A stretch of 64,000 nt of DNA from a virus. Every line of letters begins with the position of its first letter. Position 1 is the first letter of the stretch. Positions 13,356-62,794 of this stretch are shown one piece after another. The stretch is taken from positions 52,878-116,877 of the IMG/VR virus record IMGVR_UViG_3300025636_000001. One strand, given 5' to 3'. Both the position numbers and the translations under genes were made by a program. The notes beneath the pieces are model-generated. The model was not told the DNA's origin and ran no database searches. It saw only the letters and a program-made list of their open reading frames with translations.

Positions 13356-13401
13356 TGATAGTATTATATATAACTAATATACAAAATATTGACGAGATTG
13401 C

Positions 13402-29427: not shown

Positions 29428-29559
29428 AAAATCCTATTTTACAACTTAGAAAACTTATTTGTATCTATACATAATATACAAAAGTTTTTGTAATCAAGCA
29501 AGAACTTAACCACTTAAGTTATAAAATAGGATTTATATAAATCTAAAAAAAGATTTTTA

Positions 29560-36697: not shown

Positions 36698-36767
36698 ATC
36701 AATCTTATTATAATATAGTTATATTACTATATATATAATATACAAAAAAAAGCTGATATTTTGAAAT

Positions 36768-43653: not shown

Positions 43654-43692
43654 AATATTGTTGGTTTTTGTAATTAATCTTTCTTACATATA

Positions 43693-43704
43693 TAATATAC
43701 AAAA
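43693..43704 (-). promoter_or_regulatory. Recurrent late promoter-like motif TTTTGTATATTA (representative copy)
   Basis: Same motif upstream of minus-strand starts at 13375, 29472, 36736, 38088 (shorter) and 53404; variant at 25225. Confidence 0.65.
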
Positions 43705-53091: not shown

Positions 53092-53376
53092 TTATTTTAT
53101 CATTTTATGTAGTGTAGCGCATTTTTCATATTCTTCAAATTCAGCAAACCAGTCTATCATAATCTCTATAGTTTCTTTGTTGAATCCTTCATCAATATCA
53201 TGCATGACAACAGTATAACTTTCATTGTTTTCTATGTCTTCAGCAAGTAGCTCTTCAAAACTTAATTTTTCTGTTAGTATTCTAAAAGAGTTATCATATG
53301 CTTTTTCAAGCATTTCGTCAGAAACATCTATATCTTCAATGCCATCTAAGTTATCCCAAAAATCGTCTTCACTCAT
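53092..53376 (-). CDS. Acidic hypothetical protein
   Basis: C-terminal F...EEYEKCA motif; preceded by a late promoter motif. Confidence 0.6.
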   Translation of the reverse strand: MSEDDFWDNLDGIEDIDVSDEMLEKAYDNSFRILTEKLSFEELLAEDIENNESYTVVMHDIDEGFNKETIEIMIDWFAEFEEYEKCATLHKMIK

Positions 53377-53439
53377 AGTAATATTATTAGACCTTTATAA
53401 ATATAATATACAAAATATTTAGCATATTGTTACTTTATA

Positions 53440-53685
53440 CTATATATTGTCAAATACTTCTATTGTTTGTTTTATATATTCCTTTTGTTTATCCTCTAAA
53501 TAATTTATTTCTCTTTGTAAGTAATCTAATGCTTTGCGTAAGTCCTGTAACTCGTCATTCTTCTTACCTGCTCTTGCTACATACTTTAAAATATTACCTC
53601 TGTTAAAGTTAAGAGAGTAATCCTTACACACGTCTATAATATCGTAGTCCTTACCTGTTTCATAATGTAATTGTGTACTTCTCAT
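53440..53685 (-). CDS. DUF3310-like protein
   Basis: HY...F.RGNILKYV.RAGKK...DLRKA..YL. Confidence 0.8.
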   Translation of the reverse strand: MRSTQLHYETGKDYDIIDVCKDYSLNFNRGNILKYVARAGKKNDELQDLRKALDYLQREINYLEDKQKEYIKQTIEVFDNI

Positions 53686-54083
53686 AGTTTTTCTAATCTT
53701 TGTGTTAAAAGTTTAATTTTATCTTCTAAATCTTTCTTTTCTAATTTTTTATTTTCTTCTTCCTTTATTAAATGTTTTGCAACTTCATCATTAACCCAAC
53801 CCATTAACTGTTCATCATTAAAAGATAAAATTTGTTTTGGTATATATGAAAAATCATTAGTAGTATAGTCTTCATATGGTATTTGGTCATCATTAAAAAT
53901 ACAAATTTCATCTTTATCTATTCTAAAACTATAATGTTCTATAAAATAATCAAAACCTTGAATATAATAACAAGACATATTTCCTAATAAATCAGGATAA
54001 ATATCTTTATCATTTAAAATGTGTTCTTGTTCCGATATAAAATTTAATATCTCCCAAATTCTGTACAGGTCTAATGTTTTCAT
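53682..54083 (-). CDS. Hypothetical protein
   Basis: 133-aa ORF overlapping the next start; first minus-strand gene. Confidence 0.55.
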   Translation of the reverse strand: MKTLDLYRIWEILNFISEQEHILNDKDIYPDLLGNMSCYYIQGFDYFIEHYSFRIDKDEICIFNDDQIPYEDYTTNDFSYIPKQILSFNDEQLMGWVNDEVAKHLIKEEENKKLEKKDLEDKIKLLTQRLEKL

Positions 54084-54140
54084 AACCTCTATTCTATTAT
54101 ATTTTTTAGTTCTTTTGTTTCAATTTTATATAAAATAAAA

Positions 54141-54260
54141 GAGAGGCTTCGGGTCTTTCAAGGTTACTGACTAAGCCTGATTTTACCTATACCTACTGTT
54201 AACCTTTTTTCAGTATAGTCACCTTTATCAGTGGTGTGCTCGTTACAGCTTCACTACCTC
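54141..54260 (-). ncRNA. Candidate structured RNA (three hairpins, loop-loop complementarity)
   Basis: GC-richer intergenic island directly downstream of a TATATTTG box at 54274-54281; stems and 7-nt loop complementarity found by eye. Confidence 0.45.
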
Positions 54261-54273
54261 TTTTTTATTTTTT

Positions 54274-54281
54274 CAAATATA
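54274..54281 (-). promoter_or_regulatory. Bacteroidota-type -7 box TAnnTTTG (representative copy)
   Basis: TATATTTG on the minus strand; similar boxes near 26511, 29883, 40367 and 52971. Confidence 0.5.
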
Positions 54282-54454
54282 GTAAATTTTTTATATCCCC
54301 CCAATTTTTAAATGTGATAACATACCCCCCCCGGTCCTGCTAAAGTTTTGTGTTTGGCATTGTTAGGAGGTGCTAGCTAAACCATTCCCCAGTAAAGTTC
54401 TGGGATAGTCTACCCCCCTAGAAGTGGTAGACAACATTTAAACATTTAAGCATT

Positions 54455-54739
54455 ATGTATTTTTACAAATTCACACAGACAAAGAAAGGTATCGTGACTA
54501 GCACTGAACCACTAACAGGAATGAAGACTACAACCAAGATGATTGGTGGAGTAGAAGTAGAAGTGAGAGAGCAGGCTGGTGCACAAGGTGAAGTTAAATT
54601 TGGTTTTACTGCTATAAAGCCGGAATTAGCATCACAAATGAACGTGGCTGTTGGAGATGAGTTGCCATTGGAGATAACTGAGAAAGCAGTTGTTGACGGG
54701 AATGGTGAGGCTATTCCAAACTTGTTCTGGGCACATTAA
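54455..54739 (+). CDS. Early hypothetical protein, copy 1
   Basis: 94 aa, ends PNLFWAH. Confidence 0.75.
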   Translation: MYFYKFTQTKKGIVTSTEPLTGMKTTTKMIGGVEVEVREQAGAQGEVKFGFTAIKPELASQMNVAVGDELPLEITEKAVVDGNGEAIPNLFWAH

Positions 54740-54754
54740 GCCAAGATCAAGAAC

Positions 54755-54778
54755 AGAGAGGTGGGAAACCATCTCTCT
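54755..54778 (+). terminator. Stem-loop after copy 1
   Basis: AGAGAGGTGG-GAAA-CCATCTCTCT; weak T tail. Confidence 0.55.
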
Positions 54779-54789
54779 TGCTCACCATG

Positions 54790-54856
54790 TTGCATTCACT
54801 AGTTAGTGGACTAAACTTTTCCCTAGCTGTGCTTTGCAATTGCATTCACTAGTTAG
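54790..54856 (+). repeat. 17-nt direct repeat TTGCATTCACTAGTTAG x2
   Basis: Exact copies at 54790-54806 and 54840-54856. Confidence 0.85.
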
Positions 54857-54938
54857 CATACTGCAACATGTGGCTATTAAACTTTTCCCCAGCCACATCT
54901 TGCAATTATTATTAATTCATATAAAAAACAAAACAATT

Positions 54939-55229
54939 ATGGCTTACTTTTTTAAATTCACTCAGTCTGGTAAAGGTATAGTAACCAGCTCTGAGCCGTT
55001 GAACCAAACAATGGAAACAAAAAATATTGGTGGTGTTGAAACTCAAGTACGCGTACAAACAGGTGCTGCGTCTGGAGAAATTACATTTGGCTTTACCGCT
55101 GTTAGTCCAGAGGTATCTAGTCAAATGCAAGTAGCAGTGGGAGATGAACTTCCACTAGAGATCACAGGGAAACCAGTGATTGACAACACTACAGGTGAGG
55201 CTGTGCCTAACTTATTCTGGGCACACTAA
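54939..55229 (+). CDS. Early hypothetical protein, copy 2 (start MAYFF)
   Basis: Collinear paralogue of 54455-54739. Confidence 0.75.
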   Translation: MAYFFKFTQSGKGIVTSSEPLNQTMETKNIGGVETQVRVQTGAASGEITFGFTAVSPEVSSQMQVAVGDELPLEITGKPVIDNTTGEAVPNLFWAH

Positions 55230-62464: not shown

Positions 62465-62794
62465 ATGTTTGAAAATATATTAAAGGGATTACAAAAAGAT
62501 CTAGTAGGTTTAGATTTTGTTTACAAAAGCAAATACGGTGGTGAAGTAAAAGGAACTGTTAAAGGAGTTTCAATCACACATCAACTTAATGCTGATAAAG
62601 AAACTAATCGAAAAATGTTAGTAGGTTTAAGTAAAAGAACCTCTAAAATACAAATAACTGAAGAGGATGAAATTGAACTAACACCTGATTTTAAATGGTC
62701 TGGTTGGAGTTTTGAAATAATGATTACTTCCGAGAATGGAATTTCATACAATATGAAGAAAGATAACATATATTTTATAAATAAAGATGAATAA
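62465..62794 (+). CDS. Hypothetical protein (start MFENI)
   Basis: ATG immediately after the upstream stop. Confidence 0.55.
   Translation: MFENILKGLQKDLVGLDFVYKSKYGGEVKGTVKGVSITHQLNADKETNRKMLVGLSKRTSKIQITEEDEIELTPDFKWSGWSFEIMITSENGISYNMKKDNIYFINKDE

Follow-up and report, generated by a model that had tools for sequence, protein, structure and literature searches.

A pseudoknotted RNA module between the divergent gene blocks of an uncultured phage belongs to a large, apparently undescribed phage RNA family

What kind of RNA, if any, is encoded at the point where the two gene blocks of a large uncultured phage diverge? The question is raised by a stretch of 64,000 nucleotides (nt), called the window below, which comprises bases 52878 to 116877 of the 116,877-bp IMG/VR virus record IMGVR_UViG_3300025636_000001. 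A preliminary description of this DNA placed a candidate compact kissing-loop or pseudoknot RNA on the minus strand of a 371-nt gap, which separates the minus-strand open reading frame (ORF) 53682-54083 from the plus-strand ORF 54455-54739, and proposed a new riboswitch, ribozyme or small RNA. Our work shows that this site, at which the two gene blocks diverge, encodes a pseudoknotted RNA with a length of about 120 nt (54140-54263, minus strand; hereafter the module), and that the module is a member of a large, phage-carried and apparently undescribed RNA family. The reading as a new small RNA, ribozyme or riboswitch stands, and the hairpins first drawn for it were partly wrong.

Fold and covariation of the module

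Folding the window copy on its own does not reveal the module: the z score of its single-sequence fold, -0.99, lies within chance, and 30 of 200 shuffled sequences give an equally good fold. The case was decided by comparison with 79 relatives. Pattern searches yielded 105 unique windows, of which 93 were parsed; 13 had no recognisable J1/2 motif (the junction between helices P1 and P2), some of them being plainly coding chance matches. From the 93 we dropped six with fewer than six P1 pairs and two chance matches (L221 and L233), which left 85 contexts and 80 distinct sequences, namely, the window copy and its 79 relatives. These sequences, whose aligned members are 87 to 126 nt long, were aligned with MAFFT, blind to structure, and served to build a covariance model, R1, with 109 positions and 21 pairs. 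The window copy matches positions 1 to 109 of the 109 with 86.7 bits (E value of 2e-18 to 2e-21); the window sequence is among the 80 used to build R1, and the match is thus partly by construction, with independent support coming from a copy in an unrelated viral contig (L084) and from the diverged members described below.

The elements of the family are, in order, the closing helix P1, the invariant junction AGUGAAGC (J1/2), helix P2, hairpin P3, the invariant junction GAAAGACCCGAA, and the 3' strand of P1. A pseudoknot joins the loop of P3 to the bases directly 3' of P2. On the minus strand of the window, P1 pairs AGAGGU (54256-54261) with GCCUCU (54142-54147). J1/2 reads AGUGAAG (54249-54255) and falls in invariant or near-invariant columns; the next base, C, opens P2, in which CUG (54246-54248) pairs with CAG (54167-54169). 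P3 is formed by CUAUACU (54212-54218) and GGUAUAG (54187-54193), and the seven pairs of the pseudoknot connect AAGGUUA in the P3 loop (54200-54206) with UAACCUU (54160-54166). The 3' junction GAAAGACCCGAA occupies positions 54148-54159.

Compensatory changes are found in P1, P2, P3 and the pseudoknot. In the 80-sequence alignment 84.4% of the cells are paired, compared with 69.2% in shuffles, and in 500 shuffles the observed values were never reached, be it for the share of paired cells, for two-sided changes, for pair types or for the covariation score. As a control, a shift of the 3' partners by one to three columns lowers the paired cells to 35 to 53%. All eight P1 pairs change on both sides, with 87% of their cells paired, a percentage that is inflated by the selection for at least six P1 pairs; P2 and the pseudoknot are unaffected by this selection. 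The three outer pairs of P2 contain no unpaired cell (CG in 80 sequences; UA in 76 and AU in 4; GC in 68, AU in 10, CG in 1 and UA in 1). The four modelled pairs of P3 likewise all change on both sides, with 81.7% of cells paired. The pseudoknot reaches 92.5%, and both of its variable pairs covary: one is GC in 50 sequences, AU in 26 and GU in 4, with none unpaired, and the other is UA in 35, AU in 33, CG in 5 and UG in 1, with 6 unpaired. The search pattern had pre-set four of the seven bases in the 3' strand of the pseudoknot, and none in its 5' strand nor column 112. G-U pairs are common, with UG in 28 sequences at the innermost P1 pair, for example, which fits an RNA of the minus strand, on which the module lies.

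Conservation extends to the unpaired parts. Both junctions, AGUGAAGC and the one that precedes the 3' strand of P1, vary little or not at all across the alignment and are unchanged in the window copy. Of the 39 distinct members that were found by a pattern covering only the 5' half, 35 have the 3' junction without any change, and the other four each differ from it at a single base. Altogether, about 20 unpaired bases stay constant in phages of distant hosts.

How does this fold relate to the one drawn in the preliminary description? All of the strings quoted there are present on the minus strand where they were placed, and two of its pairings turned out to be elements of the family. The complementarity of two loops, AAGGUUA (54206-54200) and UAACCUU (54166-54160), is the conserved and covarying pseudoknot, and the pairing of the 5' GAGG (54260-54257) with the 3' CCUC (54146-54143), offered as an alternative, is the closing helix P1. 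The three hairpins fared less well. The first, CACC..GGUG (54236-54220), is there, but it lies within a lineage-specific insert that is seen only in the window, in the near-identical contig L003 and in L084, which are identical in this part; CUGAU (54231-54227), in the same insert, is indeed complementary to AUCAG (54181-54177). The second, UACUG..CAGUA (54215-54194), is also present, but it overlaps and competes with the conserved hairpin P3. As for the third, AGGCUU..AAGCCU (54178-54144), its strings exist, but its outer stem is not conserved and is broken in the L084 copy, which differs from the window copy by a single mismatch; the bases drawn as its 3' strand in fact form that of P1, so that the same bases are claimed by both.

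The module is not of a kind known to Rfam. At gathering thresholds, Rfam 15 has no match in the 64-kb window, and at E values up to 10 the region 53950-54550 gives four matches, all at 10 to 17 bits against thresholds of 50 to 100. In L084, two tRNAs match Rfam and nothing else does. Together with the covarying homologues and an R1 match at an E value of about 1e-18, this supports the reading as a compact pseudoknotted RNA. A literature search for a description of the family found none, and the 12-letter junction string gave two unrelated matches. A 2023 catalogue holds 8,495 candidate RNA models predicted from IMG/VR (PMC10690425). Its candidates, named DNAVirus_X, are like the module in their source and in being covarying intergenic phage RNA motifs; the parts of its main text that we consulted present tRNA-like candidates, terminators, and gp20 and gp32 leaders, and not the module. 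The family may be listed by number in its supplements.

Distribution, tRNA context and transfer

The minus strand of the window encodes a terminase (TerL), a portal, a major head protein and an endolysin and also carries very large ORFs. Compared with cultured phages, all TerL matches are below 60% identity, the best being 27.8% to Flavobacterium phages, and the matched records include phages of Flavobacterium, Bacteroides and Cellulophaga, a set that we take to be crAss-like. The sequencing runs that contain the module stretch are marine or seawater metagenomes, and we read the source as an uncultured marine crAss-like phage. No tRNA was detected in the 64-kb window by ARAGORN, and the whole genome of 116,877 bp has no tRNA or transfer-messenger RNA (tmRNA) gene.

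The TerL-related phages compared here do not carry the module. Neither blastn nor nhmmer found a homologue in 80 phages with a related TerL (76 to 94% identical), and 1.3 kb around the site had no blastn match in cultured phages at an E value of 1e-5. Two 21-base patterns located the module in L084, an unrelated viral contig of 42 kb, in which it is flanked by tRNA-Ser and tRNA-Gln and lies downstream of a QueC-like gene. Among 80 relatives of this gene, nhmmer found diverged copies of the module in L091, L086, L105, L125 and L138, and weaker ones in L137, L156 and L159. Searched with R1, 10 of 81 QueC-linked loci match, six of them over the full length and four as a variant without P1 and part of the junctions. 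This variant (L137:5514-5604, L152, L156 and L159) keeps P2, P3, the pseudoknot and GAAAGACC, has another closing helix and other junctions, and starts directly past the 3' end of a tRNA.

A shared core pattern, AACCYYGAAAGACCCGAA, recovers at least 118 viral stretches in IMG/VR, and a 5'-side pattern adds 25 further loci. The phage of the window carries a single copy, the only match to R1 in its genome. Two cultured phages are members as well: Klebsiella phage RaK2 (NC_019526, about 177021-177118) scores 73.1 bits against R1 in an unannotated gap, and in Erwinia phage Hena1 (NC_048828, about 53722-53829; 60.1 bits) the module exactly fills the gap between tRNA-Gly and tRNA-Glu. A scan of 596 Gb of prokaryote genomes gave 79 pattern matches, with about 70 expected by chance (our own arithmetic), and says little beyond the family being rare outside viruses. 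Against R1, three of the 79 score 75 to 96 bits, three score 29 to 40 bits, and the rest score about 28 bits or less; the three best are metagenome-assembled genome contigs assigned to Bacteroidia, Flavobacterium and Flavobacteriales. We conclude that the family is essentially viral and that its hosts span at least Bacteroidota and Enterobacteria.

The usual place of the family is within arrays of tRNA genes. A tRNA on the same strand lies within 400 nt in 64 of the 85 contexts. In 49, a tRNA of one of 12 different kinds starts 1 to 9 nt after P1, and in 26 a tRNA ends 0 to 3 nt before P1 (extended to at most 10 pairs). The orientation of the module is that of the neighbouring tRNA genes. No tRNA is found within 400 nt in the remaining 21 contexts, several of which lie just before or behind ORFs. 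A position in a tRNA array is typical of the family and does not define it; the window copy, one of the 21, is atypical, as a single module in a phage without tRNA genes.

How did the module come to such a place? Its copy in L084 has one mismatch to that of the window, and the flanks are unrelated. Short contigs from three marine RNA runs and one DNA run point the same way: many of them share only 54134/54139-54261 with the window and continue, to the left and to the right, into several sequences that are not alike, and thus the module is a discrete unit in several genomes. Further evidence comes from the order of genes at the head of the late strand. In those 28 of the 80 TerL-related phages whose upstream sequence is long enough for mapping, the late strand begins with the homologue of ORF 53092-53376, and the module and ORFs 53440-53685 and 53682-54083 are absent from all 80, which indicates that these three form a lineage-specific insert. 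Relatives of ORF 53682-54083 were found in only one near-identical contig (L002/L003), and the small ORF 53440-53685 (minus strand), which is equally specific to the lineage, encodes a DUF3310 domain (E value of 6e-13). In L003 and in one DNA-run contig, 378 additional nt follow directly after the U-rich tail of the module, which therefore lies at a junction of exchangeable cassettes. In L084, a homing-endonuclease gene (L084:7004-7648) and the QueC-like gene (L084:4466-5287) stand beside the tRNA/module cluster.

In run X10 the summed contig depth of the module exceeds that of its neighbours, and in run X20 the two are about equal. Contig depth cannot rank genes, and such sums pool identical copies from different genomes; depth was therefore not used as a measure of expression. 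Stretches left uncovered in the RNA runs carry no meaning, and shares below 0.2 in the remaining runs were disregarded.

What the module RNA may do

On balance, we lean towards a stable, trans-acting RNA that binds a universal component of the host cell. In tRNA arrays, the module would be cut from the precursor as the flanking tRNAs are processed, and in the phage of the window it would be made from a late-type promoter-like box of its own and end at P1 and a U-rich tail. The product in both settings would be a free and stable small RNA, closed at its ends by P1. Phages of Bacteroidota and of Enterobacteria, distant as these hosts are, have nearly the same unpaired junctions, and for this reason the RNA most likely binds a partner that all bacteria share, probably a part of the tRNA or translation machinery, rather than a host-specific target; the universal partner should be a component of that machinery or a common metabolite, or else the chemistry of the RNA itself. 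The window copy presumably entered a variable cassette region, where the late strand begins, through a recent horizontal transfer. Taken as one statement, from the fold through release and partner to transfer, we consider this account somewhat probable.

The promoter-like box lies in front of the module at 54274-54286 (minus strand) and reads TTTACTATATTTG; it contains TATATTTG at 54281-54274, the box of the TAnnTTTG type that had been reported before. It is a variant of an enriched motif. The motif TTTNSTATATTNK occurs 8 times in the window, with 1.04 occurrences expected, and none of 100 shuffles reaches 8. Six of the eight belong to the minus strand: five lie in gaps before late-strand ORFs, and the sixth is the box of the module. 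The gaps before late-strand genes contain TTTTGTATATTAT/G at 13374-13386, 29471-29483, 36735-36747, 43692-43704 and 53403-53415 (all minus strand), the last of which precedes the conserved first late gene, and a motif of the same type leads the late strand in related phages. We consider that the TTTTGTATATTAT-type motif is probably a middle or late promoter of the clade.

On the other side of the module, past position 54141, comes the U-rich tail noted earlier (54128-54141, minus strand), followed by a sigma-70-like site, TTGAAA-16-TATAAT (54096-54123, minus strand), before ORF 53682-54083; the site has 11 of 12 consensus matches and is called from the consensus only. The tail is absent in L084 and hence belongs to the context of the window copy, not to the module.

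Several points weigh against this account of a free, trans-acting RNA, in addition to the selection on P1 mentioned above. The box of the module deviates from the enriched motif (TTTACTATATTTG compared with TTTTGTATATTAT), and the window shows no enrichment of the generic TAnnTTTG, with 38 found and 37 expected. A terminator scan of 53500-55000 returned no site, and P1, unlike a classic terminator hairpin, which is short and G+C-rich with a loop of 3 to 8 nt and a U run right behind it, encloses a domain of about 100 nt. In the window copy, the family fold has a calculated energy of -22.3 kcal/mol for its nested part plus about -5.6 for the pseudoknot duplex, and a fold with the alternative hairpin 3 reaches -28.0 kcal/mol, so that the two are predicted to be about equally stable. 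Near-invariant junctions would fit a catalytic core or a ligand pocket equally well as a binding site. Finally, the RNA runs are represented by assembled contigs, from which neither starts and ends nor strand and level can be read and which may contain DNA.

Could the module cut RNA by itself? It would then be a putative new class of small self-cleaving ribozyme, a portable RNA-processing cassette that cuts at or near its own edge, freeing the ends of neighbouring tRNAs in arrays and trimming the leader of the late transcript in the phage of the window. The small size, the pseudoknot, the covarying stems and the unpaired junctions that are nearly invariant across host phyla are all consistent with it. 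The strongest point in its favor is that P1 starts 0 to 3 nt past the 3' end of a tRNA in 26 of the 85 contexts, as in the HDV-like (hepatitis delta virus-like) theta ribozymes of gut phages, which are tRNA-associated, have a cleavage site adjoining the tRNA 3' end and are assigned to Bacteroidota for about 90% of their predicted hosts (PMC10879173). However, no Rfam ribozyme family matches the module, even at E values up to 10, and the bases at the outer end of P1, where an HDV-like enzyme would cut, vary freely. An equally tight spacing, with gaps of 1 to 10 nt, is found among the tRNAs of the phage T4 cluster. The T4 cluster is processed by host enzymes. We consider self-cleavage, the main rival reading, possible, if rather unlikely.

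The theta ribozymes themselves do not include the module, alike as the two are in being phage-borne, tRNA-associated and placed directly against a tRNA end: theta ribozymes form a nested double pseudoknot, whereas the module combines an end-pairing P1 with a pairing of a loop to the bases 3' of P2, in another order of strands. An HDV-like topology was therefore ruled out by the strand order, with no Rfam ribozyme family match and no tRNA in the genome of the window.

A bolder form of the same idea, which we regard as speculative and unlikely, holds that the family is either a new class of self-cleaving ribozymes or otherwise a self-contained device made of RNA, acting upon the machinery of tRNA processing. 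Such a putative device would be a portable cassette passed among phages of many host phyla, would form tRNA ends in arrays without some of the usual host enzymes, and would have found a new use where the late transcript begins in a crAss-like phage without tRNAs.

Less probable still, and in our view doubtful, is a cis-acting element without any function in trans, i.e., a structured end piece that terminates or insulates transcription units and protects neighbouring RNAs from exonucleases or misfolding. The U-rich sequence after P1, seen here and in several other contexts without a tRNA, is consistent with such a role, and so are the 21 tRNA-less contexts, with their positions next to ORFs, and the location of the window copy at a junction of variable cassettes, with the 378 extra nt of L003 directly behind it. 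Yet a simple hairpin would suffice for this purpose, and about 20 invariant unpaired bases and a pseudoknot conserved across phyla exceed the needs of a terminator. The U-richness after P1 is not higher in contexts without a tRNA than in those with one (a mean of 4.7 compared with 5.4 T in 10 nt), the L084 copy has no U tail, and termination directly before tRNA genes would silence them.

A riboswitch, in which the core would bind a small molecule and P1 with the U-rich tail would act as a ligand-controlled terminator of the late operon, is the least likely of the three options put forward at the outset, because the downstream genes share nothing in common. These genes are tRNAs of 12 kinds or unrelated ORFs and thus have no shared pathway. 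The core with its invariant junctions and pseudoknot does look like an aptamer, an alternative hairpin rivals P1 at nearly equal predicted energy in the window copy, and the module follows a QueC-like gene in the L084 lineage. However, the competing hairpin is specific to the window copy and broken in L084, neither preQ1 nor any other riboswitch family of Rfam matches, and only 10 of 81 QueC-linked loci contain the module; we regard a riboswitch as very improbable. That the element is not an RNA at all, and is instead a DNA-level site for recombination, homing or attachment or a chance pattern, is barely credible: near-identical copies with sharp borders in unrelated phages do suggest mobility, the L084 copy has a homing endonuclease gene at a distance of about 3 kb and the single-sequence fold is not significant, but compensatory changes in four helices, at a level of covariation that none of 500 shuffles attains, frequent G-U pairs and an orientation shared with neighbouring tRNA genes all speak for an RNA.

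Which known RNAs come closest in role to a small RNA encoded within phage tRNA arrays? GOLLD and ROOL run to several hundred nucleotides, against 87 to 126 nt in the aligned members of our family. Both are Rfam entries, and Rfam has no match at the module. Like the module, GOLLD and ROOL are structured RNAs that often occur near tRNAs and in (pro)phages (PMC5737381). Species 1 and 2 of T4 (rnaC and rnaD) are also comparable, as small RNAs of 119 to 139 nt within a phage tRNA cluster, on the same strand as a tRNA gene and a few bases away from it (AF158101 annotation). They are not members of the family: R1 has no match at their position (L283 4909-5172) even with filters off, no shared motifs were apparent on reading, and the best matches in the 10-kb T4 stretch, at 15.0 and 12.6 bits, lie elsewhere. 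In addition, the tRNA-like arm at the end of rnaC is missing from the module.

We also considered the tRNA elbow's double T-loop module, whose core AGNNA ... UGNNA has six highly invariant residues (PMC3664808). AGUGA is invariant in J1/2 of the module, whereas the first base of the second candidate, YGAAA, is U in 44 and C in 36 of the 80 sequences (column 118). This short signature is only half present, and the double T-loop was set aside. In a crAss-like phage, the study of phi14:2 reported abundant intergenic RNAs (bioRxiv 10.1101/2020.03.07.982082).

Why would such a family matter? Few widespread and strongly conserved RNA folds of bacteria and phages remain uncatalogued, and those found earlier often proved to be ribozymes, riboswitches or key cofactors. 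The tie to tRNA arrays points to a general step in how phages handle tRNA or translation, and the presence of the module in cultured phages (Klebsiella RaK2 and Erwinia Hena1) makes the family directly testable. What the window adds is a copy that is functional, or is at any rate retained, in a phage that lacks tRNA genes altogether and behind a promoter-like box, and that was exchanged very recently between unrelated marine phages.

Other features of the divergent gap and the genome

The plus-strand block begins with two neighbouring paralogues, ORFs 54455-54739 and 54834-55229, which are 64 to 66% identical over about 95 residues and match no Pfam or PHROG family. Their relatives lead the plus-strand block in some related phages.

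Between these genes and the module, a block of about 110 nt at 54300-54440 is strongly conserved in 25 related phages and includes GGGGAG and a run of the AATGC.AAACACA type. For neither strand of this block does RNAalifold predict any pairs. The block may serve as a promoter, operator or origin region, or else as an unstructured leader for the genes of the plus strand.

The gap also contains runs of 6 to 8 G at 54320-54335 and 54295-54302. The run of 8 G has 5 G in L003, a relative with 99% identity, and is 3 bases shorter in the DNA-run contig; hence, the length of homopolymers in the gap is polymorphic.

At the level of the whole genome, bases 1-100 recur at 115551-115650 (window positions of about 62674-62773), roughly 1.3 kb before the end of the record. 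The first 200 bases do not recur as a whole, and the feature is a short direct repeat near the termini.

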